49,425 nt of DNA from Hydrurus foetidus. Taxonomy: Eukaryota. Location: positions 1 through 49,425 of the forward strand of contig UYFQ01000689.1 of NCBI GenBank assembly GCA_900617105.1, given 5' to 3'. The first letter of the stretch is position 1. Each line of letters opens with the position of its first letter. The notes beneath the pieces were generated by a model that ran no database searches, was not told the DNA's origin, and saw only the letters and a program-made list of their open reading frames with translations. Below, in pieces: positions 16,357 through 49,425 of this stretch. The position numbers were made by a program, and so were the translations under genes.

Positions 16357-17649
16357 TTATGCATTATTTTGTGCCAAGTTCAACAGATATTGGGCCCACA
16401 TTGCTTGAGCAATATCATTTCGCCAGATCTTTAGTGCTTGCATGTTTACACCTCCTTCGTCATCATCTTCATTTTCATCGTCCTCAGCAATTAGATTGTT
16501 TAGGACTTCTACATTATAAAATTCATCTTCATACAATTGATTAATACAGACAAAGTTGTGTATAAGAAAACATGATTGTACAATATCGCATTGGAATTCA
16601 AAATCATAAGGACTCATTTTTTTTAGAATAGGGAATCTGTTTTTTGTTATGCCATACAATCGTTCTATACAATTCCGTAATGAGGAATGTCTTAGATTAA
16701 ACAACTCCTTATAATTCGCAGGACCTACTCCATTGCCTGCAAACTCCACCAAATGGTAGCGCACACCTCGATATGGTGTTAGAACGTACTTGCTTAGGCC
16801 ATACCCAGCATCTCCTAAGTAGTATTTATCGGCTAGCAAAGGTAATCCCTTAGTTTTTGCATCGTCGTATACCCTGCTGTCATGAGCAGAACCCTCCCAT
16901 CCAAATAAAGCATCAGCAAAGGTGAGATCAAAGTTAGCAACGCCTAAAACATTCTGAGAAATGAATTTTTTTCTGTTCCGAAATGGGCCTTGCAATTCCA
17001 CAGGTATAACTGCAGGTATGTGTGTTCCATCAATAGCACCAATACAATTGTCGAAATATGGAGTAAAATTCCCATTGTTAGAAATCTTTGCTGAAACAGG
17101 ATCCCCAACTTTTGCAGGTTTGTACAGTCGATCCTTGATATTGTCCAAGCAAATGCTCACCTCGTGAACAATTTCAGATATTGTTGCACCCGAGTGTTGC
17201 CATCTTTCTGCAGTCTCCCTATTAGTGTGTCCACGGAGAACGTGAATCAAAATCATTAGCTTCTGTCCGCTGCAAATATACATTGAATCGGTCAACCCTC
17301 CAGCAATTAGATTGTCCTTCAGCAGACAGAAAGTCTCTCTGTCCATTCTAGCAACTTGTCGAAATCTGTTGTCATTTTCAGTATTCATGACCTCTCTGTA
17401 ATAAAGGTCACCTGTAAGAACCGAATTATGCTGAATGCGGGGATGACGCCGAGCATGGTAAACACCAGCCAAAACCAGCGCAACAAGCAGCACGACGTTG
17501 ATATTCCCATCAGCATCCATTGCATGTATATTGTTGGAAATTGTGTTCAATAGTTGACATAGGTGTAGCACTTTTTTCATGTCTTCATATTCAAGTTTCC
17601 AATTTTCATGTTTCCGTTCGGTAAAACGGGGGGAACTCGGACCTTTCAT
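16357..17649 (-). CDS. Harbinger DDE transposase (HARBI1-like), intact
   Basis: CIGAIDGTH, FRNRK, GWEGSAHD, YYLGDAGY, TPYRGVRYHL, FNLRHSSLRNCIERLYG. The real start may be the ATG at 17520 (MDADG). Confidence 0.95.
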   Translation of the reverse strand: MKGPSSPRFTERKHENWKLEYEDMKKVLHLCQLLNTISNNIHAMDADGNINVVLLVALVLAGVYHARRHPRIQHNSVLTGDLYYREVMNTENDNRFRQVARMDRETFCLLKDNLIAGGLTDSMYICSGQKLMILIHVLRGHTNRETAERWQHSGATISEIVHEVSICLDNIKDRLYKPAKVGDPVSAKISNNGNFTPYFDNCIGAIDGTHIPAVIPVELQGPFRNRKKFISQNVLGVANFDLTFADALFGWEGSAHDSRVYDDAKTKGLPLLADKYYLGDAGYGLSKYVLTPYRGVRYHLVEFAGNGVGPANYKELFNLRHSSLRNCIERLYGITKNRFPILKKMSPYDFEFQCDIVQSCFLIHNFVCINQLYEDEFYNVEVLNNLIAEDDENEDDDEGGVNMQALKIWRNDIAQAMWAQYLLNLAQNNA

Positions 17650-20308: not shown

Positions 20309-21163
20309 ATGAAAAGTTACGGCGTTTTATTCCTTCTGCTGTGCATCAACCTCACTGCCTACATTTGCGGATTCCAGACTGTTAGAATTTTCAGAATGCC
20401 TGATCCGAGTGGCTACAAGACTCTTGGAAAGCATCAATTGGAATGTGATTCAATTGGTTCAGAGATGATCGATGGATCTACCATACCCGACAGCAGCGAC
20501 ATCAAGCGGATCGAGCCAATCTTTATAGAAGACAATTGTTCTATCAGCTTGGATCACTTCTCCGTACCTGTCCATTATAAAGACACTCTGGACTCACTGC
20601 TGATTCCTCATGGCACTGTCATTTCCCGGATTGACAAACTGGCATTGGATATAATCCAAGATTATAAGGGACAAACAATTCACTTACTGTGCGTTTTGAA
20701 GGGCGGCTCTACTTTTTTTCACGATCTATGCAAAGCGATCTCAAAATACCATGAATCCTCGGGAAATTCGCATGTCCCATACATTTTCGACTTCATACGA
20801 GTGAGCTCATACAGTGGAACAAACAGCACAGGTGAAGTTCGCATAACGGGTTGTGATTTGGAGAAACTTAAAGGAAAGCATGTCTTATTTGTTGAGGACA
20901 TCATAGACACTGGACTCACGATGACGAAGATTTTTGAGTTTATGAAGGAGAGAATTGTCCCTGAGTCAGTTAACGTAGCGAGTCTCTGCGAGAAAAGGAC
21001 GCCTCATAGTTGTGGATTCAAAGCTAAATATGTGGGATTTTCGATACCCGATAAGTTCATCGTGGGATACTGCATGGACTACAACGAGGTGTATCGCGAC
21101 TTGTCCCACATCGCAGTGATAGGGTCTGTGGGTATCGAAAAGTTCAAAGATACGGGTTACTAA
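20309..21163 (+). CDS. HPRT: Hypoxanthine-guanine phosphoribosyltransferase, intronless, with predicted signal + transit peptide
   Basis: LCVLKGG, DFIRVSSY, PRPP-binding VLFVEDIIDTGLT, YVGFSIPDKFIVGYCMDYNEVYRDL. Confidence 0.95.
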   Translation: MKSYGVLFLLLCINLTAYICGFQTVRIFRMPDPSGYKTLGKHQLECDSIGSEMIDGSTIPDSSDIKRIEPIFIEDNCSISLDHFSVPVHYKDTLDSLLIPHGTVISRIDKLALDIIQDYKGQTIHLLCVLKGGSTFFHDLCKAISKYHESSGNSHVPYIFDFIRVSSYSGTNSTGEVRITGCDLEKLKGKHVLFVEDIIDTGLTMTKIFEFMKERIVPESVNVASLCEKRTPHSCGFKAKYVGFSIPDKFIVGYCMDYNEVYRDLSHIAVIGSVGIEKFKDTGY

Positions 21164-22802: not shown

Positions 22803-23064
22803 TAACAAAGTTTGGATAGAGTAGTCGTTGCAGCCTTTCTCCCCGGTGCGTTGCGTTTTGATCTCCAATAGTCTAAACACTCTAAGCTGGACTGCTCACT
22901 GCTCACTCAACAATATAGCGCAGCGTCTAGCATCCTCCCCTGATATCATCTGATCGATCTCCGATCTCGATCTGCTGGTCTGCTGCTGCTCGTGCTGTAA
23001 AATATGCTGTCTTGAAGGGTTACCGGTAACTGTGCGGTATATTCCCGTGTTTTCCGCCACCAAG

Positions 23065-23467
23065 TCTTGGTAAAACCGTTCCTTTAGGGATAACTGATCC
23101 CGGTACTGAACTGGTAGGTTGCTAGTGATTCGTTGAGAATACACCTTGTGAAATGCAAGCCTAGCCAGAGCAGCAGAATAGTCAACTAGTGTAGGTATAA
23201 TGACGTGATGTCATAGAGTCTCTTTTAATAAGAAGTGGTTAGCATGTCAAAACATCCACTTCATCAGCTGTATACTAACTGCTAGTATGCTACTTGGTGT
23301 GATTCATCACTCCAACATTTCATTCCTGATGTGACCGCGGGTTGGTGTATAGTATCAACCAGTCTACAAGGAATCATAAAACGTATGCCTAAGCTACAAC
23401 TATCCGGACTGGATATCGCTCATGATATTATCCCCAAAGGGATTCCTAGTCTACGCATATCCCAACA
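23065..23467 (-). repeat. 3' LTR of the copia element (TG...GA)
   Basis: Direct repeat of 28588-28990; in element sense it begins TGTTGG and ends CCAAGA. Confidence 0.96.
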
Positions 23468-23474
23468 CACCCCT
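23468..23474 (-). other. Polypurine tract (AGGGGTG) abutting the 3' LTR
   Basis: G-rich run immediately 5' of the TG of the 3' LTR in element sense. Confidence 0.7.
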
Positions 23475-23646
23475 AATGTCATCGACATTCAGTCACATGG
23501 TTGTTTAGGTATCATGCAAATTATTTATCATCACATGGTGTTAAAACGTGGTAATTATCATAACTAATATAGGTTTCTGCGTAGTTATCATCATAACCAT
23601 ATAGTCAAAAATCACGGTGACTTTTTGAGTGTGAGATAAAGAGATG

Positions 23647-26600
23647 TTACTTTTGTCCCATTATTTTCTTGAACATTTTGTCGAAAATCGCACCTTGCAA
23701 CGGTTTTGTAAAGTAGTCGGAAGTCATTTCCGCCGTGGGAACATAGACAATGTCCACTGCACCGTTCTTGATATAGTCCGAGATCCAGAATTTCCGGATC
23801 TCGATGAACCTGGTGGTCTCTGCGGTAGACCGACCTTTCGTGAGTAGTGTGATACAGGATTGGTTATCCTGCTCCAATCGCACTGGTTGTGGATCGTATC
23901 CTTGAAGGCGGATGAAGTCTGCGAGCCATAATGGGATGTTCATCCCGTCGGACACCGCGATGATCTCAGCCTCCGTGCTCGACTTGGAATTCAGCTTCTG
24001 GACCTTGGAACTCGTGATGAAAAATCCCACCCCTAATGTGACGCACATTCCTGAGGTTGATTTCATGTTGTCGCGATTCGCAAATGCAGCATCAATTGAT
24101 ACCGTGACTCTTGGTGGGAGGTCAGCTTTGAGTCGTAGGGGTACGTCACGTACGTACTTCGCATAGCTGATGACCCTGTCGAGCTTCTTGTCATCCTCGT
24201 AGGATGGTGCTTTCACTCGTTTTGAGAGTTCGCCCACCACTGTTGTGAGGCTCGGATGTGCACGCGAGCATGTCCATGCAATGGTTGCGGTGTCGGTGTG
24301 ATATATTTCTGCATCCTTGGCACTCAACAGCTCACTGTCAGGGGTTCGATCAAACAGGTGAGGAGCACCTGGTGAGTGCGGAATTCCAGCGGGTTTGGTT
24401 CCGCGGTCTTTGTGAGTCTTCTCTCTTGCAGCAACAATGTCTTGGATCATCCCTGCTTGTGAAACTTTCACGTATCCTGTTTCACTGTAGTCCCAGGTCA
24501 GGCCTAGGTACGATACGATAGGCCCCTGTGTTGTCCTGAATTGGCCGTAAACTTTTAGCAGGATCTGTTCCATGGCGAGGACAGCGTCCTTGTCAACACA
24601 CGTCATCTTTAAGTCGTCGACGTAGACAACAATCGTGAATTGCTTTCCTTTGATGCTCTTGTTAAAGACGCAAAGGTCGCGCGGGTTGGCCGTGAAACCG
24701 TTGGACCGTAGGGTTCCGGCTATTTCCTCATACCACAGTTTGGCAGACTCGATACAGCCATATAGTGCCTTGTTCAGACGTACCAGAATGCTTCCATTGT
24801 GCATTCGGTACGCAGCAAATGACTTGTCTTGTCGTACGATTTCATCCGCCACATCTTTAGTTACCATCATGTGCAGGATTTTATCCGGTTTATCCAGCGG
24901 CATTTTCGCGTTGAGGTACGCGGACCCCACATCACCCACCATAACAAACCGTTTCTCCGCTGCCGCCAGTTGCGCTACGGTGAATATTGCGGCCATGGAA
25001 GCAGTGGGTGATTCGATCTCATCGGGCTTGTAGTCGGTTCGCACTTGCGCGCGCCCATCGACACAGAACCTGGCCTTGACCTTGTCGATCTCTCGGTTAC
25101 CCTCCGAGTTTAGTGTGGGTAGGAACTTCTCCGTGACGTTCATGATCGAACGCAGGATCTTGTTTCGCTGTGGTTGTGTCAGTTGTGACATGTGCACCCC
25201 TGAGAATGTGTCCTTTGCGAGGAGCGATTTGACCTCTGACTCGATGGCGAATGCAGTCTTTTCCGGGAAGAGCTTCAGTCCCCGAGTAACTGACATCATC
25301 GACCAAACATGCGGATTGTCGATTTCTTGTGCTTGAGTTGATACTTCTTCCGCTGTTAAGTTAAGTCGGTCGATTGGTTTCTTCAGTCTGGATGACTTTT
25401 CCCTTGGTTCTATGGGTCGAGGTGTGTACTTACGTACGTTCACCGGTGCACTATCAAAAGCGTTCTCCTCCGGAATCTCTTCAACGGGCTCCGTTGGTTC
25501 CGATATTTCGCCAGAAGTTTCATGTAGGTTTTCTGTGTCTGGAACCGTATCAGTCTCACCCCGAATCTCCATTGGCGATTGTGTCGGTGGGGATTCAAAA
25601 CCGATTGGTGCGGTGGGAATTGACGGCGGAAATGGGTCCTGAATGGGTCCGCGGTCTCCGATTGGTGCCGCTGTCGGTGGTGCTGCACGAGTAATGTTTC
25701 CGACGGCATCATTGTCGACATCATTTGTGATGTCTCGGTCGTGGAATGTGAAGATCGGGTCGATCGAGGTATGCAGCTTGTTCTTTGCCGCCCACCCATT
25801 CACGGTAGTGATAACGATGGGTGGGATCGGCAGTACCACATAGTGGTTCGCATTGATGGTCGCCCGATTGTCCAACCGAAGGAATGCATGTGTTCCTGTG
25901 CCATTCATCTTCGGCTCCAGGTAAAGGCATCCAATCGTGCGCTGGTCCATGCCATTCGACATGGTGCGGTTGGTGACCTGACAGTAGGTGCCGAAAGGTG
26001 GACCGATGTCCATCTTTGTATCAGCCTTTCTCCCGAAGAAGGCCTCAAAGGGAGATATTTTGTCCGTTCGTGTGGACGAAGGGAACAACAGTAGTTTCTT
26101 GGAGCAGCTCAGCACCAAGTGATTCATCATCGCGTCAGCGACTAGGTAGGGTAGGCTGTGTATGGTGGCCCGAATGGTCTCCTTCAGGTGGCGGATCATC
26201 CGCTCCACGATGTGATCATGCTGACCTGGTCCGACGAGAGAGACGGCCACGCCCATTGCATTCATGTCTCCTGCAAGCGCCGCGATCCCTCGTTCATTGT
26301 CGCTGGTGAAGCGGGTGATCTTGATACTGCGGGATCCGATGGTGCCGAACATCCTCCTGATGCTTTGTCTCAGGATTGGCGCTGTGAGATTCTCCACGCA
26401 AGCAACGAGGACAATGCCAAGAGGATGTGTGATGGAAACCAGGAATGGTTGCTTATTGACAAACATGACATCACAATGCATGTGTTGCTCATCAGAATCA
26501 CGGTGACTTTTAAAATCACGGTGACTTTTAAAATCACGGTGACTTTGCAATGCTGGAAATGGTCGGGCTCGAACTGTTCGCCCTTTCAGAGCAGCGATGT

Positions 26601-28560
26601 TGGCACCCCAGATCGCAGTTGCTCGATTAACATCTTCAGGAAGGATGTCGCAGTTGAGGAATGCTCCGGCGTTCAAAGCAGAGATCATCTTGGCGTCGGG
26701 TGGGAATCCAAGGCTTGCTTGTAGCCGTCGGGCATCGAAGCTTCGAGCAACCTCGCGCTTGGAGTACGCTGCCTCATTTGCCGTTGTTGTTGGCAAAGGA
26801 GCTGAGAAAAAAGGTCCTCCTGCCTTATTGAGAGCGATGGCGGGGTTGGCTGACTCTAATCTCGACTTGTTGGAGCTCTCATGTCGAGGCTCTGGTCGTG
26901 ATGCAAGATCGCAAACATAGAGTCCACCTCGATGTTGAAAGCGATAGGTTTGCTTTGCTGTGTGCACCAGGAAAGCATCTTGATCAACATGTCCTCCACG
27001 TTGGAACTCCCAGTTGTGTCCTTGCAAAAGGATATCCGAAGCTGAAATGATGGAGAGCGCCGCCCGATCATCGAAGTGAACGATGCCGATATCACCAAGT
27101 CTGCCGACTTTTGTCACTGTCAAGGATCCATGCAAGCCCTTAAACACAGTTGGCCGACACGTCCAAATCTCTGAGAGAACATCAGCGCTTGTGATGATTG
27201 TGCCGGTGGCACCGGTGTCGAAAATCGCTTCGGTCGATGATGGTTGGATTGAAGTTCGGGTGGCCTGTAGACTGATTCCGTCACCGTCGTCGGGTGGAGA
27301 TCCTTTCAACGCGACATTGCATCTTCGATCATCATCTTCCATTTCTTCATCCTCTTCATCATGCATGTTGTCAAATGATGTATAATATGAGGCGTGACTG
27401 CTCGCCTTGTTTGTCGGCTCTGGATTTTTCTCAAATCGCACCTTTTTCGGCTCGTCTTTCGCCTTGCTCCGGCACTCAGATTTTCGGTGGCCAAACTTGC
27501 CACAGTTGAAACATTCGCCTTCGAACTTTATTTTTGGTTTGTCTTTGTCGGGTTCGGCCTTGGTGTCTTTGCTGGAAGGTTTGTCTTTGTGACCCTTGCC
27601 CTTCCCCAACTGCTTGGCACCCTTTTTTCCTCGATCTTCAGTCTGCTGCTGAGCTCCGAATGCTGAATGTGGCGTTGTCGGAGGGAGGGTTGCATTGATA
27701 TTCTCAATGAATAAAGTCTCAAATCTCGTTGCTCGCAGGATTGCATCGACGAGGGTCGCAGGGTATATGTCTCGATCCGTTTGCTGTTTGGCATTGATCA
27801 GGTACATCTTGTAACCGTGGTATGCCGGAACTGATCCATCGAGCCCATCAATGAAGCGCATTGATTGCTGCTTTGGCTTTGGCTGTTCTTCAACTGGTAT
27901 TCCAGTTGTGGTGAGTCTTTCGAATGTTTTGATAGCACGCCGGCCATAATTCAGAATCACCTCCCCATGTTCCATTTTCAGTCCAAACCACTCACTGAGG
28001 GCTTTCTGACGGTCGAGTTCTTCATTTCCATCTGGCCGTGCCGTGACAAGGCGCTTAATTATATTGAGCAATTCGAGTGGGTCATCTTCCTCGCAGGCTA
28101 TGAAAGCGGCGTCGACGGAGAGTAGCGAGTTGAGCTGTGCTGAGCACATGTCTCGAATGACTGTGTAGCAGTTCTCCTTGTCGATCCTCTGTTGGGTCAT
28201 CAACTTGAGGTATTGATTGTTCCTCCCGCTGAGGAGTCCCATGAAGATCTTGTTTTTGTTTCCTGATGGATCGTTCGCTTCCATGATCGCCTCCAGCTCT
28301 GCCTCAGTGGCCATAGGTGGTAGGTGCTTCCGGTAAGCCGGTGCAACAGTCACTTTCATCGGATCCTGACAGATTGACTTTAGGTCCTGATAGTTGTCCC
28401 TGCAGTACGCCTTCAGCTTAGCTATGATTGAATCCCACTGCTTGTGGCAATCATGGCTGATCTCAACCAATCCTGCGGGTATGATCCTCTTTTCAAGGGA
28501 TCCATTTGCACCCTCATCTTTCCTCGGTGGCGCACCACCTTTGGAACCTTTTTGACTCAT
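23647..28560 (-). CDS. Copia Gag-Pol polyprotein, 1637 aa, uninterrupted
   Basis: CCHC knuckle CFNCGKFGHRKSEC; protease IFDTGAT; integrase HCDVMF / TSDNE / VERMIR; RT KARFCVDG, DVGSAYL, KALYGCIESAKLWY, YVDD; RNase H SIDAAFA, SSTEAE, QDNQS, DYFTKPL. Confidence 0.97.
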   Translation of the reverse strand: MSQKGSKGGAPPRKDEGANGSLEKRIIPAGLVEISHDCHKQWDSIIAKLKAYCRDNYQDLKSICQDPMKVTVAPAYRKHLPPMATEAELEAIMEANDPSGNKNKIFMGLLSGRNNQYLKLMTQQRIDKENCYTVIRDMCSAQLNSLLSVDAAFIACEEDDPLELLNIIKRLVTARPDGNEELDRQKALSEWFGLKMEHGEVILNYGRRAIKTFERLTTTGIPVEEQPKPKQQSMRFIDGLDGSVPAYHGYKMYLINAKQQTDRDIYPATLVDAILRATRFETLFIENINATLPPTTPHSAFGAQQQTEDRGKKGAKQLGKGKGHKDKPSSKDTKAEPDKDKPKIKFEGECFNCGKFGHRKSECRSKAKDEPKKVRFEKNPEPTNKASSHASYYTSFDNMHDEEDEEMEDDDRRCNVALKGSPPDDGDGISLQATRTSIQPSSTEAIFDTGATGTIITSADVLSEIWTCRPTVFKGLHGSLTVTKVGRLGDIGIVHFDDRAALSIISASDILLQGHNWEFQRGGHVDQDAFLVHTAKQTYRFQHRGGLYVCDLASRPEPRHESSNKSRLESANPAIALNKAGGPFFSAPLPTTTANEAAYSKREVARSFDARRLQASLGFPPDAKMISALNAGAFLNCDILPEDVNRATAIWGANIAALKGRTVRARPFPALQSHRDFKSHRDFKSHRDSDEQHMHCDVMFVNKQPFLVSITHPLGIVLVACVENLTAPILRQSIRRMFGTIGSRSIKITRFTSDNERGIAALAGDMNAMGVAVSLVGPGQHDHIVERMIRHLKETIRATIHSLPYLVADAMMNHLVLSCSKKLLLFPSSTRTDKISPFEAFFGRKADTKMDIGPPFGTYCQVTNRTMSNGMDQRTIGCLYLEPKMNGTGTHAFLRLDNRATINANHYVVLPIPPIVITTVNGWAAKNKLHTSIDPIFTFHDRDITNDVDNDAVGNITRAAPPTAAPIGDRGPIQDPFPPSIPTAPIGFESPPTQSPMEIRGETDTVPDTENLHETSGEISEPTEPVEEIPEENAFDSAPVNVRKYTPRPIEPREKSSRLKKPIDRLNLTAEEVSTQAQEIDNPHVWSMMSVTRGLKLFPEKTAFAIESEVKSLLAKDTFSGVHMSQLTQPQRNKILRSIMNVTEKFLPTLNSEGNREIDKVKARFCVDGRAQVRTDYKPDEIESPTASMAAIFTVAQLAAAEKRFVMVGDVGSAYLNAKMPLDKPDKILHMMVTKDVADEIVRQDKSFAAYRMHNGSILVRLNKALYGCIESAKLWYEEIAGTLRSNGFTANPRDLCVFNKSIKGKQFTIVVYVDDLKMTCVDKDAVLAMEQILLKVYGQFRTTQGPIVSYLGLTWDYSETGYVKVSQAGMIQDIVAAREKTHKDRGTKPAGIPHSPGAPHLFDRTPDSELLSAKDAEIYHTDTATIAWTCSRAHPSLTTVVGELSKRVKAPSYEDDKKLDRVISYAKYVRDVPLRLKADLPPRVTVSIDAAFANRDNMKSTSGMCVTLGVGFFITSSKVQKLNSKSSTEAEIIAVSDGMNIPLWLADFIRLQGYDPQPVRLEQDNQSCITLLTKGRSTAETTRFIEIRKFWISDYIKNGAVDIVYVPTAEMTSDYFTKPLQGAIFDKMFKKIMGQK

Positions 28561-28577: not shown

Positions 28578-28587
28578 CTTCTTATTA
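28578..28587 (-). promoter_or_regulatory. Putative self-priming primer-binding site (sense TAATAAGAAG)
   Basis: Directly follows the 5' LTR, lacks the TGG of a tRNA PBS, and is the exact reverse complement of the LTR-internal 10-mer at 28749-28758. Confidence 0.6.
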
Positions 28588-28990
28588 TCTTGGTAAAACC
28601 GTTCCTTTAGGGATAACTGATCCCGGTACTGAACTGGTAGGTTGCTAGTGATTCGTTGAGAATACACCTTGTGAAATGCAAGCCTAGCCAGAGCAGCAGA
28701 AAAGTCAACTAGTGTAGGTATGATGACGTGATGTCATAGAGTCTCTTTTAATAAGAAGTGGTTAGCATGTCAAATCATCCACTTCATCAGCTGTATACTA
28801 ACTGCTAGTATGCTACTTGGTGTGATTCATCACTCCAACATTTCATTCCTGATGTGACCGCGGGTTGGTGTATAGTATCAACCGGTCTACAAGGAATCAT
28901 AAAACGTATGCCTAAGCTACAACTATCCGGACTGGATATCGCTCATGATATTATCCCCAAAGGGATTCCTAGTCTACGCATATCCCAACA
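28588..28990 (-). repeat. 5' LTR of the copia element (TG...GA)
   Basis: Direct repeat of 23065-23467; the gag ATG lies only 27 nt downstream. Confidence 0.96.
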
Positions 28991-31079
28991 CCAAGCACCA
29001 AGTGCACCAGAACGGCTAATTGGGCACGGCTCCCTCTCAAAAATGGAATTAAAGGAAATCGGTAAAAATGCAGGGAAAGTGTGAATTTTGGCGCATCTCC
29101 TACCCTCGCATCCCCAAACCAGCATTCTCCATTCTCCACGACATTTCGGACAGCAAAGAATGCGATAGAACTCCAGTTGAAAAAGCGTAGAGCCAGTTCC
29201 TCGTAATGCCTATCATAGCAGCTATAGCTGCTACAACTCCCATTGGAAATCGTCATCACCGGAGAAATCAGACATCCCGAGGACTGGTGAAAACAGGAGA
29301 TTTAACCATCTTCAAACCATACAGAGTATCTGTTACATCAGGTAAGGCGCTTCAAACGCTTGATTCTTGCTTGAGCATGTACTCAAATTTAGGCACTTCA
29401 CTTTAATTGGCGAGCGGCGGTGGCAAAAACCTCCAGTCCAACGAAATTTTTTGAAGTCGTTTTCGTCTCTAAAAACAAATCCTCTCTATTTTGCGAATGA
29501 GCAGCCCAACTCTCACAGAACTTTGAGGAGAGCAGTAACTTATATCTGTTAAAGTGCTTGCAAATTTCTAGCGTCATATGTACAGTGCATAAATAGTTAT
29601 TACAGTTACAAGCTTTGAAAAACAACAGCTCGATAGCGCTATCATTTTTGCAAATATCTGGTAAAATATAGCTGAGTTGATCAGATAAGTAACTGCGGAT
29701 GTTACATTATATATGATGCATGAAGCATCTGCGAGATTTAGCCGCATAGAATGAGGAATTGTAATTAACAATATTTTTTCGATGCTAAAAAAAAAGGATG
29801 GTTGTCGGTTACAAACTTGGAGATGTGATTGTTATTTATGATGTGCTCATAAGGGTAAATATTAAAGATGCTAAGAAATCGACAGAGAATGCAGATACAT
29901 CAGGAACAATAAAGAAAAAATGCTTAAAAGAACCCCACTGCCAAGTAATGTGATCCTTCCGACACCTCTCGAGGATACTATTAAAAAACAAATACGAGCC
30001 CATGGACTGCTTGGGCCAGAGCACCGTCAGAATGAGCTGGACGTTTTGAGCCTGAAAGTCAGCGAATTGAATTTATTGCGTGAGGTCGAAAGCGAGATTT
30101 TTGTGCAGGTGAGCATTAACATTGGGCACTTATGAGGGATCATGTGATAGGCAAATACACATTCATTATCATTAAGATCACAACCGATTGAACTTGTGAC
30201 AATACTTATATCATCTTAGAGGTCATTTAAAACTACCCTAAGAAAAGAACTACCTGCCATTGCATCCTTGGTCGCCAAATTCGCTGCCAAATTTCAAGTA
30301 GTGCACCACCTGGAAAAAAAAATCTCGTAGAAATTACGATTGAATTCGTTTCAATCTATTTTGAGTCGTAGCAATTGATTTGCGGTCATTGGTAATGATC
30401 CGCAACGAGTGTTACCTCCAGCCGAGATAGCCGCGCGACAGAATCGTCACTTTTACTGCTCTAAAGATGCTGTCATTTTACTTCCATAAAATGAACTTTC
30501 ACGGATTCATTCTGTCGTTCAAAAAACAAACTTTGATTAGATTCACGTACAGCATATATCTGAAGAGCAGCTGGCAGAAAAGAACTACTGACCATCAAGT
30601 CCGTCATCTCTGCTGAGGTTGGAAAACTTCTCCAAAAACAGGAGGTTGTTGTTGGAGGTGCAGAATAATTCTGCTGAGCTCTAGCAACAAAAAAATATGT
30701 GACCCCGTACAGATCATGGAGTCGCGGTCAGTTTGCGCTACGTTTATACAACGCCGGTGCAGAATTCGCTGAGATATGTGTATCGACTGGTATTGTCGAT
30801 AATCATCGCTCTGCTCAGAATTGGAAATCGTTTAATTCCATTATTCGTGCTCAGGCCAGTCCTTATGCCGCACACAAAACACTTTTACGGTTTCCCTTTT
30901 TTGTAGTCTGAAACATTTTTTGGGCGACAAATCGGTATTGCCCTTATGTGGACTACAAATTATATTTTGGTTTTTTTTCAGTAATTGACCTTATGGTGAT
31001 TACATGAAACATAATTTCATCGAATACATAAACTTCGACTACCCGATAGGAAGACTGTTTTTTTGTTGAGGACCGTTTT

Positions 31080-34992: not shown

Positions 34993-37900
34993 TCATTTGT
35001 CAGGTATAATGTCAGGCCTCCACAATTTGAGTTTGCTATTGTCTTTATAAGAATTGCTCTTCGAGATAATGTTCCTAGCAGCTTCGTCTTTCTGTCTGCT
35101 GTCCCTTTCCTTCAGCTCTCGAGTGTGCTGCGTTTGTATGGATAACATGCACGCACGTACAGACTCCACACACGCTCCTTGCACGCGACTGCGCAGCTTG
35201 GCGTTGAGCCACTCACTGTTACCTCCTGCCATTTCAATGAAGAATAACACTTTAATCAATGAGTAACAGAGCTAACTCATACATACGTGCGTAAGTAGAT
35301 GAACGATACTTTCCAGCGTCACTCTTCTACATAAAAATGTAAATAAAGTCATCCGCATCACATAACTACAGTCACATATGTATTTACATTCCCAACAGGC
35401 AATCGCACGAATAATAGTGCGTACGTAGGTACCTTGTGTGGGTCCTCCAGGTGTGCCACTGGACAAATTAGAGTTGGACCCTGAATCCGACCCCGTCCAG
35501 ATTCCAGAATGCGTACATGCTGACAGGGCGAGTATCGCCTGTGCCGAGTTAGAGAGGTGCTCTTCTTCTCGTTTCGTCCACACGTAAGCGGACAGGGTGG
35601 CTTTCTTCTTCTTCATCTTCTTATCGAATTCGAACATTCTGAACAGCGACTCTCTAACGCTCTCCGCTCCAGGTGACTTGAGTCGCAGATACATTTCCTT
35701 CCTCTCGCTCTTCAGCATATTGGCGCTGATGGCTAGTCTGGCTTCTATGTGGGGCAGCAGTCTGGAGGGCACCCCAATCACCGTTATTCTCTCCATGCCG
35801 TCCAGACGGAGACTCATGTTGTCGTGATTCACGTCAAAGTTAGCCCCTAGATTGGAGCTCTTCCTCGACCCCATGAGAGGGTTTCGAGACGGACTGGCAT
35901 CTCCCTTACCAGGTGTGCCACTAGCGATGATGTTGGCTGACATCACGCTCTTGTCTCCCTGACTGCCAACAGCAGAAGGAGGTGTAGGGTTCCTGGACCC
36001 AGTCCCGCTCGGATTCTGCTTCTTAGACCGACCGGTTATTAGCTGGGATCGTGCGTACTTACCCCCTAAAGACTCTATCAGTCTTTTCTTCTCTTCTTCG
36101 TAGAGGGCTAAATGGAGATAGGAATCGCCCTCAATCATTAAATAAAATTTGCTGCGATATCCTAGTGGAGTGAATTCTTTTTCCCACAGCAGCAGCACGT
36201 CACTGCGAAGCGCTCTTGCCATCTGTGTTCTGTTCCTCCTCTCCTGCCCCTGCACCATCCAGGCCCTAACTCTGGCCTCCACCTTGATGACTGCCCTCCT
36301 CTTCAGCAGATACACGGCACGCAGCACCCTCCTCCTGAAGGCACTCTGCAATCTAATCACTGCATGTCGGTACCGCACGTACTCCTTCCTCCGTACGGAC
36401 ATTCTCAGAAATCCCTGGACCTTCATCACCATGCCGAGGAAGGTGGCGTTCTTGCTCTTCTTCTTCGCTAATATCCTAGCGCATCTCATGGCGTACAATC
36501 GATACGATCGCTGTATAACTCGTATCGCCTAGCAGCACGAATAGGTAAGACGAAGTCAGGTCGGATAAAAAAGAGATCATTGAAGTCGTCAGATTCTAGA
36601 GGGAGAGATAGAGATGTTTGACAGACGAAACGGGACAGTGTAGGACATTGCGATCTCACCTTCAACTTCACGAGATATCTCCTCCTAGGGCGCAGCATGC
36701 GGAACAAAGACTGCATTTTACAAATGGACTTTAGCAATCTGGTGTTTCTCTCCCTAGCTGCTGCCATGCGGTCCCTCATAGCAGCTGCCCTCCTGCTGCC
36801 CTCCCCCATAGAGCGACTGCTGTCCGTACGACCCAATGTACGTGCCTTCATCTCCATGGTTTCTTGCAGTGCGTTGGAGCTCTGACTCAGCTGTCTGCCC
36901 TTCTCTGGCTTCTGTAGCAGGATCCTCGCTGGTCGGATGGGGCCGAATAGAGCGGGGGAGAGGGCGGGAAACTGCTGGTAGGAGAATGTGATCTCCTCTG
37001 TAGAGCTGGACGAGGAGGAGGAAGAGCCGGGGAGGGTGGGGGTCAGCGGTAAACCCCATCCGGTTGGTTCCGGTGCAGTGAAGCTCTCCGTGATGTCGTT
37101 GCTGGTGGTGTGTGTGTGCGGTGATGTGAGGTGATTTGGTTTGAGGAGTGTAAAGGGTAGCAAATTAGAAAAGTGAGAGTGAGTCTCTCTGTCTGGCAGT
37201 ATTTTAGACATAGGAGGAAGGAAGACTGGCAGACTAGAACTAGCTCTCTGAGTAGGGCTCGCACTACAGCCACTTGTTATGTGGTGACTTTCGAGTAATG
37301 ACAGAGTGGATAAATTAGATTGGAAATGCGATGGTTAAAGAATTCCAAGTGAGTACAACTCTTGAGACACACAGCAGATAAAAGATAAAATACATGTCGG
37401 GATAATGAGTACGGGACTCTGAATGGCAGAGATTCTGTCAGACTACTTGATTTAATGCATACCTTGTGTCGCTCAGAAAAGGTGTGAATGTTTTATACGA
37501 CAAGGCACTTCTGTTTTTCTTCGCTAGGATGCTTTCCTCGAAGAAAGTCACCTCTGCTGATCTTTCTTTGCCCCTTTTGAATGTTTGCGGGCCGGCCCCG
37601 CACTCCTCCTCGAATGAACAAAACATCTGCGTCTCAAGCCTGTGTGTGCATGTGGGTGGACGGGTGCATGTCATGTTATGTTATCATACGATTTCATGTG
37701 ATTTGATTTGATATGGGTTTGTGTGTGATGCGATGCGCTTCTATCGAGTCAGTGCAGTCGAATGGAACAGGACAACAGTGATTAGAAACAGAGCAGGACA
37801 GATCGTTGCCAACAATTAGTTGCCAGACGGTAGCAGTCGAGATCAAGTCAAGTCAGGGCTAATGAGTCAGCGATATCGAGTGGTGGCCATGAAGTCAACA

Positions 37901-40900
37901 TGGTTTGATGCTATCGCAGATGAACGTTTGATGCGTACTAACGCGGTGATGATGAATGAATGTTTGCGAGCACATGCTCGTATGCACGAGTGCTTTCATG
38001 TTTGTGTCTGTGAGTACGCATGCTTGTGTGTGGAGTGCTTTCATGTTTGTGTCTATGAGTACGCATGCTTGTGTGTGGAGTGCTTTCATGTTTGTGTCTG
38101 TGAGTACGCATGCTTATGTGTGGAGTGCTTTCATGTTTGTGTCTGTGAGTACGCATGCTTGTGTGTGGAGTGCTTTCATGTTTGTGTCTGTGAGTACGCA
38201 TGCTTGTGTGTGGAGTGCTTTCATGTTTGTGTCTGTGAGTACGCATGCTTGTGTGTGGAGTGCTTTCATGTTTGTGTCTATGAGTACGCATGCTTGTGTG
38301 TGGAGTGCTTTCATGTTTGTGTCTGTGAGTACGCATGCTTGTGTGTGGAGTGCTTTCATGTTCGTGTCTATGAGTACGCATGCTTGTGTGTGGAGTGCTT
38401 TCATGTTCGTGTCTATGAGTACGCATGCTTGTGTGTGGAGTGCTTTCATGTTTGTGTCTGTGAGTACGCATGCTTGTGTGTGGAGTGCTTTCATGTTCGT
38501 GTCTATGAGTACGCATGCTTGTGTGTGGAGTGCTTTCATGTTTGTGTCTATGAGTACGCATGCTTGTGTGTGGAGTGCTTTCATGTTTGTGTCTATGAGT
38601 ACGCATGCTTGTGTGTGGAGTGCTTTCATGTTTGTGTCTGTGAGTACGCATGCTTGTGTGTGGAGTGCTTTCATGTTTGTGTCTATGAGTACGCATGCTT
38701 GTGTGTGGAGTGCTTTCATGTTTGTGTCTGTGATTACGCATGCTTGTGTGTGGAGTGCTTTCATGTTTGTGTCTGTGAGTACGCATGCTTGTGTGTGGAG
38801 TGCTTTCATGTTTGTGTCTGTGAGTACGCATGCTTGTGTGTGGAGTGCTTTCATGTTTGTGTCTATGAGTACGCATGCTTGTGTGTGGAGTGCTTTCATG
38901 TTTGTGTCTGTGAGTACGCATGCTTGTGTGTGGAGTGCTTTCATGTTTGTGTCTGTGAGTACGCATGCTTGTGTGTGGAGTGCTTTCATGTTTGTGTCTG
39001 TGAGTACGCATGCTTGTGTGTGGAGTGCTTTCATGTTCGTGTCTATGAGTACGCATGCTTGTGTGTGGAGGGTGAGAGGAGCATGTGGGGCATGCGTTGG
39101 TATGTGCATGTGCCAGAATGGGTGCTTACAGTTGTCTTAAGAACGTGTCCTTCTGCCCCTTCAGGAAAGAATCGTGGTCGAAAGGAGGCGTGATCGGGCT
39201 GCAGAATAGGAAAAGATATCGGACAAAAATCATTTCAACTTTCAGAGATGAAATCAATGCAGCGAGATTCAATGACAGAGGAGAGAACAGAATAAAATAT
39301 ATAAAGGATAGATTAGAAATCAAGGGGCTCAAGGGGGAGAATTCAGCGCTACTTCCCTGTATACCCCGCCAAAATCGAAACGTACCTATCAGTCTCTTTT
39401 GTTTTTCTGAATGGATTCACTTTTTTATCCACATCTGGCTCTGTTTTCTTGCTGGACAGACCGAGTTTCAAAAAGGAAATTCTTTTCTTCGGTGCAGGCG
39501 CAGTCTCCGCGATGCTCGAAGATGTTGTGATGCTGCTGTTGCTGTTGCGCTGATTGATGGTGATGATGTTCTCCTTCACGCCCTTGAGGTAGGACTCCTT
39601 TCCGTCCATGTAGGGGATGATCGCTGATGCGATGCCATCGTCCATGGTGTGGCTGCTGCTGCTCCTGCTCAGCCCTCCATGCCCATGTCCGTGACTGCTT
39701 CCATTGGGCACCACAGAGCTGCTGCCAGCACTAGTAGCGGCAGCCGTGTAAGATTCCACGTATTCGGTCAATAGAACAACGAACACGCGTAGAAAAGCAT
39801 TGCGAATTTTAATTGCATCGAAAGCGCCACATATGCTATTCTCTTCGACGGAATTTGCGGTCCAAGAACTCTTGTGCGTGCATGCAAATCTGATAGAATA
39901 GAATACAATGCAATGCAATGCAATGAAATAAGATTAGTGACAGGAAGGAAGGAAAGAAAGAAAGAAACAGATGGATAGTTAGATTGATAGATAGATAGAC
40001 CAATGTATGGTCACCAACACGTAGCTTACCCGAAGGGAGTATTGTTGACTGGATCCAGAATGGAGTGCATGGGAGGAACCACGATGGAACTCGCTAGTAC
40101 GTCGCCTGTTAAAAATGTGAGTGACGAGTAGAAGTGAGAACAAAGAATGAGTGATGAAGGGAAGTAGGGAAGGTGAGGGGAGGAGAGGAGGGGATGTATA
40201 CCGGGTTGTGCGTGTGCGAGTTGGTGCAGTCCATATGCGTTGGATCGTATATTGCTCCCGTCTTTGAATCCTATTCCGCTACCATTAGTGCCTGAGAGAG
40301 AGAGTCGTGAGTCGTCATTGGTTTGGTGGTCGATAAGCATGAGGAAAGATAGAGACGAACGTAATTTAATAGATGAGACTCGGCATCGAGTCACTCGAGA
40401 CGTGTGACTGTCACGTTAGCAATAAAATCTGCACGATGCAATGCAATGCGGCGCAATATTTCACGATACAGCGCAGTGAAATACGATGCATCACACAGCG
40501 ACAGTACAACATCTTACATGATGTGAAGGTTGACCTTGATAGCACATCACAACACGTCACATCACATGACAACGCAACACGACACGACACGGCACCACGA
40601 AATACAGCACATCTCAAAAGAAAACAAAACAGACCAGGTGCCAAGTCGATATGTTTACCTCCGTGTCTCGGATGCGCTAGCTTCCCTCCGTTGGCTTTGC
40701 TGTGTAGCAGCTTCTCCAACACGGACATGTTGATGGGGGACTTCACGTCAGACACTGCCGGCCCGTCCCGCTCCGGACTGACGGACCTGTTAGGGGTGCC
40801 GTCACTGGGACTGCTGTCGGACGGAGGGGAAGATGGCCGACTTGCGTGATCCGATTGAGACAGTGCACTGTTGGACTGAAAGTCGGTGATGGGAGTGAGC

Positions 40901-45317: not shown

Positions 45318-48300
45318 TGTGGTGGTACCGGGTATGCCGGGCCTACGGGCCGTACCGAACCTCGTCACCATCCACCCGATCCTTCCGCCTACAGTGCACA
45401 TACATCTCTAGCACAGCTGCCAGCTAGCTGCAGCCGACTCGTAGAAGTTAACCTAGCTTCTAGCATAGCCTGTAACTAACTATCACCTACCACTCTATCG
45501 ACTTCCTCTTCCATCCAGACTACAATAGCGCTATTCGTCCAATATTTCATCTTCTAACTCTCAGTCCATCTACTCGTCCCAACCTGTAGATAAGACTTCT
45601 GAGCTACTGCTCGTCAGCTATAAGCCGACTTCTCTTGCAGCTTCGAGCTCAGAAAACTGTAGTTTAAGTTAGAGAAAGCCAGCATACCTGCTTTCTTGGT
45701 ATCTCTAAGCTTGCGCTCTTCCATTCTTTAAGTTTCCGGTCGAAGTCGAAAGATCTGCTCGGCCGGCTGTTTGAATCACAGATTCATCACCGCAGACATA
45801 AGATTAGTCAAGAGACATCTTTTTGTCGCTGAAGAGCAGCAGCTTATACCTTTAAAGGTACCCAAATTTTCTACCACTCAAAATTTGGCTCTTACGCCAT
45901 TGAACTTTTCAGTTCAAGAGTTGGTTAGAATTCTCTAACGCGTTGTTACTGACGTTACAGTACCCGTTAGCGAACAAGGCAAACCCCTTGCAATTTTTTT
46001 GACAACGGGGGATTGATCTCTGCTGTGTTTAAGCGAGATACATATCTAGTAGCGATATATCCGCCGCCGCACCTCCAACTCCTCCACCTCCTGATGAGGA
46101 AGAGATTGCTCGCCTCGCAGCATTGGCTGCACTCAATGAGTCTTTACCATTGAACAACTCGTTGTTTGCAAACAATTCGCTGACGATGCAACTCCAGAGT
46201 GAGGTGTTCGTGCTCAGACACAACTTCATCGATAAAGCTGATGCCATTGAGTTCTACGAATAGGCTCAATGCAATCCCAACATGAAGTTGACGGACTGTA
46301 TGCAGAAGCAGGCAATCAAACTATTGAACTTCAAAATCTTAGTCGATCCTGAATTCAACATCATAGATGGTCGACAACGTCATGATTGGTTCACCATACT
46401 ATCGGTGACTCAGGTAGCCACTCTTGTAGTGAGGTACTTCTGCCCAAACGGTCTGGGGGAATGTACTTTGGCGGAGAGTTTTAGCCAAATTCCTTTCCAC
46501 TACCAGATCGCTAACCACGATCATGAGAATGCCACTTTCATTCGCTACAAGTAACTTGTGAGCATCTGTGAGAGGTCCAAGGGCCCTCTGACTGCGACTC
46601 AGCATGCTGAGCTCATTCAGATCTTGGAGAAGCGCCTAGCTAAGCTGACACCTCACCACCCAACACGGGGACGTGGTTAAAGACAATGCTACGCATTGGT
46701 CAGGTTCTGGCTGAGGCTAGGTCGATGATGAACCTCATCAAGAGCTACGGCAACCCGGAGGTAGTGTACTCGTTCCCTCCATCAGCTATTCCGCCTGAGG
46801 TTGGTAAGAAAGAGACAGGAAGAGCTAGTGTTAAAGCACCCTCTCCTACTCCACCCGTGACGTCTAGATCACTCACAACGACTGTGCGTACAACTGGCTC
46901 GTACATTCCGACTCAGCACGGACTCGCTGTCCGTGCGTCGAGGGAAGTGCCGTTCGTACCGAACTCACTAGCGTGCCGCTCGTGCGGGTCTAAGTCGCAC
47001 ATGTTGGGCAAGTGCCCCATCCTGTATTACTCCGACTCCAATACAGACTATTCGGCTGATTGGGAGGATTCTACATTGGGGATGGCTCGGGCCGCGGTAG
47101 GGCTCACTGCATGGCAACAACATCTCGTACTCCCCGGATACGAAGATCGCGTTCTGTTACTCCCTAAGGGTTCTAAACCCTACTTGATGTCTAACGACAA
47201 CAAGCGCCCCAAAAACAGCCATGGTGGCGGTAACAACCCCAATGCCTCTGGTGGTTCAGATCGTTCCAACCAGGGACAAGGGGGGTATAACCAAAACCAG
47301 GGGAACCACGGTAACCAGGGAGGTGGTTACCATGGCAACCAAGGAGGGGGTAGAGGTAAGCAGAGGGGAGGATACAACCCCAATGCGAACCAAAACCAGG
47401 GTCGTGGATCCGGTGGCAGGGGAAATCGGTACAACCCCCCACAGGGAAACAACCCTCCCTCCTCTTCCAACTCAGGTCAGGATCAAGGTAAGAACCTTCG
47501 TTTTGATGACGTGGCTGCTGTCTTTGACGATAATAACCATAATCTGATGGAAGTTCATATCGAAGACCAGCCACATGTAATTGTTCGTGAAGAATTTTTG
47601 CGTGACCCATCTATCCTTCCTTCTCACCACCTCAACGTAACTGTTATCGTGCAGGATAAAGCAAAGACAGGCCCAGCGAAAGAGCTACGGGCCGTGGGGA
47701 AAGCCGTGCTAGACACCGCGAATTATTCGGAGGATTTTGTTTCTTTTACGATGTTAGAAAAACTTAATGCTACTCACCTATGTTACCCCGCTCCTACAGC
47801 TATCACTGTTTGCAGCGGCCTTGATGGTCAATGCTATTTAAATAACGAAGTTTGCGATTTAGAAATCCTTTTTCATTCTTACGATGGCGAATGCCAGAGC
47901 ATCAGCTTACCCATGAGGGTGAACAGGAAAATTGAAATTGAAATTTTGTTTAGCCGTAAAACGGTAAAGAAATACGATTTTTGATCCTTAACTCCGTTTG
48001 CTTTCGGCATCTCGCCAGAACTAAGCGCGGAGAATGAGAAGAAAAGCGATGCGCGCAAACGTGGCTTCGATAAGAAGGAAGCTTTGTTGAAACTTGATCC
48101 CATGTATCAACATAAGTATACGCGTCGTATGATAGCGTTGGGTGCCGAACCTGATATAGCCGAAGTCGAGTCTATTACGCCTCACTATGATAAGCTAAAG
48201 TATCCAGGCGGTAAACCATCCTCTAAAAAGAGGGAAACATATGGATTACAAGAGTATCTATATAAGAAGAGCGTATTGCTTGGTCAATCTTCTTCGAAGA

Positions 48301-49425
48301 GCAACGTCTCTTGTGTCCATTCAATGTCGACATGTAACGATACCCAAATGGATATTGAGGGAGTCGCGACCCAAAATTCCTGTGGTGATGTAAGTTGTGA
48401 GCGACTGAATAGTGTCACTACTATTCTCGCAAAACGTACGGGTGATACACCGCACCTAGGTGGCGACCAGATTCCCACCCTTACACATACCTTTGGAGAT
48501 TCTGATACCCCCGACTATGTCACTGAGCCTTTATGGCCCAGTGGTGTCGCACTCTCAGTTGACGAGATTGACGATGGCAAGATAGACACGTTCGCACCCT
48601 TCTTAGCTGAGAAACCTAGTCAAGATGACTTGCCCAAGGGGCCAGAGGATTTCCTCAACGAGATTACCTTTGAGGGAGATGAAAGCTTTCAGAGGAAGTT
48701 CTGATGTTCAGACATTTTAGTGATCAGCCAGCTGAGAAACCAGCGCCACTTAAACCTTTTGAGATTAACATCCCACTTGAGTTGTGGGAAAACCGTACGC
48801 CGGTAACGTCCCCAGTCATCGACAAAGAGGTTCTTATATCTCGATGAGATGCTCGTCGTAGAGCGGATGCTGCTTATTACAGTCATCCTGTAATCGTAAC
48901 TACGTCACCCGGCCACTCTTACTAAGCGCCTGACTCCCGCCTCTTTTCCCCTACCGAATATCAAACATCTTTTTGAGAGGATCGGTAATAAAAAACCGGA
49001 TATTTTGGTGTGATGGATTTAACCGCGGGTTACCATCAGGCACCGTTACACCCCTCACATTGCATTTCACGACATTCATATGCTTTGCGGGGATCTTTCA
49101 GTTTACGAGACTGCCCTCCTGTCGTGCCCCTCTTACTTCAAGAGCAGATGTAACGGCGGTCCTCTTATCATCTATCATTGTTGCGAGATGTACCTCGACG
49201 ATTGTATAGTATATGGCAAGGGTGAAGCGGAGTTTCCTAAAAACTTGAACAAAGTCTTTGAAAGATTCAGACTTAAGGGTCTTCGACTCAAAGCCAAAAA
49301 ATGCCGCTTTGGTTTACCTCGTATTGAATACGTTGGCAGAGTGGTTGACAAAGATGATTTATCAATGCCAAAAGAGAAAATAGAAACAGTGCTGAACTTT
49401 TCCCTACCTAAGAACTTAACACTGT
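45318..49425 (+). mobile_element. Decayed Ty3/gypsy LTR retrotransposon, truncated by the window end
   Basis: Gag-like frame with stops (about 45800-46680); CCHC CRSCGSKSHMLGKC; protease AVLDTA; RT fragments YSHPVIV, MDLTAGYHQ, GIFQFTRLP, YLDDCIVYG, LKAKKCRFG..IEYVGR, in PR-RT order with stops and frameshifts. The left boundary (TGTGGT at 45318, possible LTR to ..ACTACA 45524) is a guess because the second LTR is outside the window. Confidence 0.85.

Follow-up and report, generated by a model that had tools for sequence, protein, structure and literature searches.

Self-priming of reverse transcription has been demonstrated for the Ty3/gypsy element Tf1 and predicted in one plant copia lineage. 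Copia elements that use half-tRNAs (Osser, Bryco and Bianca) have a primer-binding site (PBS) complementary to the 5' half of a tRNA that is cut in its anticodon stem. The Tf1 transcript anneals to the PBS through its first 11 bases and is cut by RNase H between bases 11 and 12 (PMC7175516); two further duplexes, those of the so-called 'pretzel', are also needed (PMC10085805). The copia element described here resembles Tf1 and Tf2 of Schizosaccharomyces pombe, Tj1 and the Tf1/sushi group of Ty3/gypsy chromoviruses in that a short PBS adjoining the 5' LTR complements the first 10-11 nt of the element's own RNA, as predicted in our case, with no tRNA site (PMC7175516, PMC4600332, PMC10085805). 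It differs from them by its copia domain order and RVT_2-type reverse transcriptase (RT), which are not those of gypsy elements, and by an LTR that ends in GA, whereas the fission-yeast elements always end in CA (PMC10085805). The mechanism itself was established in Tf1 and is a prediction for the element described here.

Within copia, Neumann et al. (2019) predict self-priming for the plant TAR lineage and recall that it had been proposed earlier for Houba and Osr-1 (PMC6317226). Self-priming copia elements are consequently not new as such, and the original prediction, which knew of no described case, needs correcting in this respect. The TAR elements (Houba, Osr-1) were recognised by a site of at least 10 nt, 0-5 nt past the 5' LTR and complementary to the LTR (PMC6317226), and the site that we describe is of this kind; the host of our element, however, belongs to a different kingdom. 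CoDi elements (CoDiI and CoDiII, or CoDi A-D in GyDB) are likewise stramenopile copia elements of 5-8 kb and include families without TG...CA termini (PMC2806351, section 18). They are the copia elements of diatoms, whereas our host looks chrysophyte, and we found no mention of priming in the CoDi descriptions of PMC2806351 and PMC2774666. Fungal GalEa elements with the Conserved Hairpin Site are also copia elements without a tRNA PBS (PMC5445492). Their site is a conserved palindrome that pairs downstream and for which the authors found no LTR complement (PMC5445492), in contrast to ours, which varies freely between families and pairs with the LTR.

An intact copia element with non-canonical LTR ends

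The window, that is the whole stretch of 49,425 nucleotides analysed here, carries on its minus strand an intact Ty1/copia element running from 28990 to 23065 (all element features below are on this strand). Its 5' LTR (28588..28990) and 3' LTR (23065..23467) are each 403 nt long and differ at 4 positions (~1%), and the element is flanked by a 5-nt target-site duplication, CTTGG (upstream copy, 28991..28995; downstream copy, 23060..23064). Judged from the four LTR mismatches and this duplication, the insertion is recent. A single gag-pol ORF of 1637 aa (23647..28560) encodes, in copia order, Gag, a CCHC knuckle (aa 349-364), a protease with the motif DTG, an integrase, an RT that matches RVT_2 (E 2.6e-17, aa 1158-1385) and carries YVDD, and RNase H. 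A G-rich polypurine tract (PPT), AGGGGTG (23468..23474), precedes the 3' LTR and is common to many relatives. The element has these features of Ty1/copia: LTRs, target-site duplication and PPT, the order gag-PR-INT-RT-RH and a copia-type RT.

The D..D..E motifs of the integrase could be read off an alignment, and the HHCC pattern was not found in the polyprotein. The polyprotein also gave no rve or gag_pre-integrase Pfam match; two ordinary copia proteins scanned alongside have both. The lack of these matches sets the clade to which the element belongs apart from ordinary copia elements. In the region encoding the integrase we observed a 15-nt motif repeated three times with 18-nt spacing (26496-26546), an in-frame gain of about 9 residues compared with the related polyprotein P0002, and the same motif occurs once more in the 3' untranslated part just past the stop codon (23610-23624).

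The termini TG...CA, which are usual but not universal in copia, are absent, and both LTRs read TG...GA. Flanks of other insertions in public contigs join at 28586-28588, which supports the placement of the 5' LTR end. No variant changing the terminal GA to CA is listed among the contigs of public runs, which show presence and not absence. These two observations together suggest that the GA end is a trait of the family. Across 42 dereplicated families (the window's element and 41 relatives, see below) the LTR 3' end is CA in 39, GA in 2 and CG in 1. In two distant relatives, L029 and L042, the LTR end is also non-CA (GA and CG, respectively) and lies directly 5' of the self-complementary site.

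Complementarity between the LTR and the post-LTR site

The original prediction described a 5' LTR ending in CCAAGA and followed at once by a 10-mer (28587-28578) without TGG, a gag ATG 27 nt past the LTR and an exact complement of the 10-mer in both LTRs. Each of these points was confirmed in the sequence: the ATG lies at 28560 and the complement at 28758-28749 in the 5' LTR and at 23235-23226 in the 3' LTR, with no further copy anywhere else in the window. We refer to the 10-mer adjoining the LTR as the predicted PBS, or site (28578..28587), and to its 10-nt complement as the arm, the predicted self-primer (28749..28758). The polarity fits priming, the 3' base of the arm pairing with the base that adjoins the LTR end. 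When the LTR was shuffled with its dinucleotides preserved, a match of at least 10 nt was obtained at offset 0 in 3 of 5000 shuffles and at offsets 0-5 in 8 of 5000. Among the 5111 internal 10-mers, only the site itself and one other are perfectly complementary to a stretch of the LTR.

The helix is weak, with a duplex energy of -8.4 kcal/mol. In folds starting at 28759 its mean probability was 0.85-0.97 at eight of ten lengths and 0.02 and 0.24 at the other two; it was 0.01-0.05 in three folds ending at 28501, and the helix appears in the minimum free energy structure of a 205-nt fold. A 6-bp candidate for a pretzel duplex is present between the LTR end and the leader. Flanking duplexes like those of Tf1 did not exceed permuted controls (115/2000 and 246/2000; by energy 2689/5000) in a search that could miss short or shifted helices.

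Among the contigs of public runs no variant is listed in the arm region (28740-28764), and the nearby positions 28739, 28765, 28767 and 28775 do vary. The sole variant listed in the site, at 28583, occurs at low depth (one contig in each of two runs) and keeps a G-U pair. No Rfam match was found between 28400 and 29100. None of the listed runs with the element is recorded as RNA. The one run that we guessed to be RNA provided contigs only, spanning 23065-23453 (nearly the whole LTR), and such contigs cannot show a start.

Conservation of the layout in distant relatives

Relatives were picked by protein homology alone, blind to the primer site, with a profile of 21 polyproteins. Of 138 confirmed metagenome loci the best 80 were taken, and 4 loci in genome contigs brought the set to 84. 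Fifty-seven of the 84 were testable, most of them single-LTR collapsed assemblies, and 27 were left out because the sequence between the stop codon after RNase H and the gag start codon could not be read. These relatives are distant (best-segment identity 23-41%), and the close clade P0002-P0026 lies outside the tested set. The closest locus, L081 (52%), comes without its 5' end, and its source assembly holds the same piece only. L081 to L084 are eukaryote-type retroelement contigs filed in bacterial metagenome-assembled genomes and are probably mis-binned. Viral contigs gave 103 pattern matches and no relatives.

In a position-agnostic search, the longest perfect inverted pair of a locus fell at the LTR end in most testable loci. 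A locus was scored positive if the pair was at least 10 nt long and started between -1 and +2 from an LTR-end-like motif, the list of motifs having been fixed after inspection of earlier scan results. Out of the 57 testable loci, 47 were positive, and three more (L040, L041 and L057, with 14 nt each) became so after repair of the region. The remaining seven comprise two loci without any match (L011 and L060), two with only 7 Watson-Crick pairs (L035 and L037) and three near misses: one of the 12 pairs of L012 is a G-U, L047 has a single mismatch over 15 positions, and L014 pairs over 10 nt but at offset +2. Covariation between the post-LTR 10-mer and an LTR-internal complement, proposed earlier as a check of the prediction, is seen: the layout recurs in 50 of 57 loci, and the 42 families have 39 different 10-mers. 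The feature is real and lineage-wide.

None of these 39 first 10-mers starts with TGG, and their G+C content is 13%. Each of the 42 families matches its own LTR over 10-33 nt, and only 15 of 1722 cross-family comparisons gave a match of at least 10 nt. The helix starts 0-2 nt from the LTR end in all 42 scored families, a position partly imposed by the rule, and G-U pairs account for 2 of 549 pairs in a search that favoured Watson-Crick matches. One family, L003, stands out by an arm-site duplex of 33 perfect pairs at the junction between LTR and PBS, versus 10-17 in all the others. The LTR ends could also be located without the helix: of the 17 relatives in which a PPT-TG start can be seen, 13 carry the 4-nt terminal inverted repeat exactly 5' of the site (background 1.2%), and ends deduced from two LTR copies agree within 1 nt in L029, L074 and L077. 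The probability of the helix in cis was at least 0.5 in 41 of 42 families folded to 5 nt past the site, and in 38 of 42 folded to 30 nt past it.

The arm begins at an initiator-like motif

The sequence CCACTTC is present at the start of the arm as originally described, and it includes an initiator-like YCAHW motif (CCACT, 28757..28761). YCAHW marks where the arm starts in 30 of 42 families (background 3.0%), and in 35 of 42 the perfect match stops either at the A of a CA or one base after it (background 11.4%). A helix ending at CA or YCAHW is what would be expected of an RNA that begins at the arm start. The original prediction placed this start at A28759. The initiator-like motif is indeed there, but the exact first base may instead be C28758, given that the initiator-like motif of diatoms is written TCAH(+1)W (PMC4686930) and that pairing begins exactly at C28758. 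The A of the motif is itself paired in only 15 of 35 families (29% expected, p about 0.05), so that A28759 stays a candidate.

A TATA-like sequence, TATACA, was also part of the prediction and is present at 28797-28792. A role as TATA box is unsupported, because TATACA does not fit TATAWA and because none of the 37 families with enough upstream sequence has TATAWA between -45 and -15. Oomycete promoters are likewise without TATA boxes (PMC3599244). A scan for bacterial promoters, a method not applicable here, found nothing.

A self-priming model and its alternatives

We consider that the copia element of the window likely primes reverse transcription with the 5' end of its own RNA and not with a tRNA, at a probability of about 0.78. 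What the original prediction drew from the layout is reinforced by the covariation and by the initiator-like motif at the arm start, with the corrections given above on the start base, the TATA box and the described copia elements. In the model that we propose, Pol II would initiate at C28758 or, alternatively, at A28759, and the leading 10-11 nt of the transcript would anneal to the site, which lies about 170 nt further downstream. If Tf1 is taken as a guide, the RNase H of the element would cut after A28749 to leave a 3'-OH, and RT would extend this primer through U5-R, giving a strong-stop DNA of about 161 nt. Transfer to the 3' R copy would allow the lost 5' bases to be recovered, and the site would be written anew when plus-strand synthesis copies the retained primer. 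Such copying could keep site and arm perfectly matched while both drift, and regeneration of the site in this way could also account for the strict Watson-Crick match (2 G-U in 549 pairs, with the bias of the search).

The primer might derive from the element by a route other than cis folding of the 5' end, as the 5' end of a co-packaged second RNA, the arm copy in the 3' R or a small RNA excised from the LTR. Because both LTRs contain the arm, sequence alone cannot separate cis from trans; the failure to detect supporting flanking duplexes and the loss of the cis helix at some fold lengths also agree with such a route. We nevertheless find it unlikely, as the pairing stops sharply at the initiator-like motif (CA in 35 of 42 families), a boundary for which the 3' R copy, lying downstream of U3 in the RNA, would have no need, and as the cis helix reaches a probability of at least 0.5 in 41 of 42 (site+5) and 38 of 42 (site+30) families. 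Still less probable is a purely structural pairing, serving packaging, translation control or RNA circularisation, with minus-strand priming by another route as suggested for the PBS-less fungal GalEa elements. Those elements do possess a conserved hairpin to which no role has been assigned (PMC5445492), and the 33-nt duplex of L003 is longer than a primer needs. A structural role would, however, account less well for a helix that starts 0-2 nt from the LTR end in 42 of 42 families (partly by the rule) and has the polarity of priming, and the scarcity of G-U pairs (2 of 549, in a search favouring Watson-Crick matches) fits templated regeneration better than ordinary structural selection.

It is very improbable that a host tRNA or half-tRNA anneals to the site, with the LTR match arising by coincidence or as a secondary effect. 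Priming by half-tRNAs is frequent among copia lineages (PMC6317226), the fungal element FunCo1 uses an A-rich site that corresponds to an internal stretch of tRNA-Lys (PMC5445492), and 12 of the 42 sites could be threaded onto an anticodon arm in a loose nine-register test. An ARAGORN scan of the window and of 56 of the 84 loci returned no tRNA for comparison. The site of the window is not among the 12 threadable ones, whose anticodons would be many and unrelated and would include the stop-codon readers TTA and CTA. Moreover no site out of 42 starts with TGG, and the 39 distinct 10-mers, with 13% G+C, vary together with the LTRs of their families, a pattern that a conserved tRNA could not generate. 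We give hardly any credit to the idea that the match in the window is a chance coincidence in AT-rich DNA. It is only 10 nt long and 80% A+T, and the position-agnostic scan returned some 10-nt inverted pair in 8 of 40 shuffles of the region, but anchoring at the LTR end was reproduced by only 3 of 5000 shuffles and the layout recurs in 50 of 57 testable relatives.

Phylogeny, host and significance

Trees were built with FastTree on 111 rows and, as a quick run on 33 hand-picked rows, with IQ-TREE, both from sets without a named CoDi or TAR reference. The element of the window nests in a clade of 106 of 111 rows (FastTree) or 28 of 33 (IQ-TREE), separated with a support of 100 from five ordinary copia rows, and in both trees the loci positive by the rule are spread throughout this clade. 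No named CoDi or TAR protein was among the listed matches. For the RT-RH region the closest Atlas clusters (0.97) are eukaryotic, and their commonest phylum is Bacillariophyta, with only 3-4 members of known phylum. For a neighbouring host gene (20309-21163) the best named relatives are from Ochromonas and Spumella (60-61% identity), and judged from this one gene the host is probably a chrysophyte. The sequencing runs that contain the element are mostly freshwater or sediment metagenomes.

We found no published report of self-priming in a stramenopile copia element, in a search with little coverage of subscription papers. What appears to be new here is a separate, stramenopile clade of probably self-priming copia elements, with a chrysophyte-like host and a TG...GA LTR. 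Self-priming probably arose independently in this clade. A broader proposal, to which we would give even odds, is that a deep stramenopile copia clade with chrysophyte-like and diatom-like hosts invented tRNA-free self-priming independently of Tf1/sushi and TAR, by means of a bare AU-rich helix of 10-17 bp that is set by the host initiator, does without the flanking helices of Tf1 and accepts LTR ends other than CA.

One more case, probably independent, in an abundant algal copia clade would, if true, make the escape from host tRNA an easy and repeated step in the evolution of LTR elements. It would also bear on the proposal that hairpin priming is older than tRNA priming (PMC3601003), and account for the failure of PBS-based annotation in elements of this kind. 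In algae with poorly mapped promoters the PBS could serve as a pointer to the exact transcription start, and the element of the window, being intact, young and encoded by a single ORF, would be suited to direct tests of primer release by a copia RNase H.

Other features of the window

Another repeated sequence lies just upstream of the 5' LTR (about 29097-29300 and beyond), with many diverged contigs in all four runs. A 430-aa ORF on the minus strand (16357-17649) encodes a DDE_Tnp_4 (PIF/Harbinger-like) transposase, and a tandem array of 45-nt units, open in several frames, occupies 37853-39187. On the plus strand, a second retroelement with the look of Ty3/gypsy (46686-49425) runs off the window end; it has a zinc-knuckle and protease-like ORF (46686-47984), and its RT motifs YHQ and YLDD are split over frames near 48900-49400.
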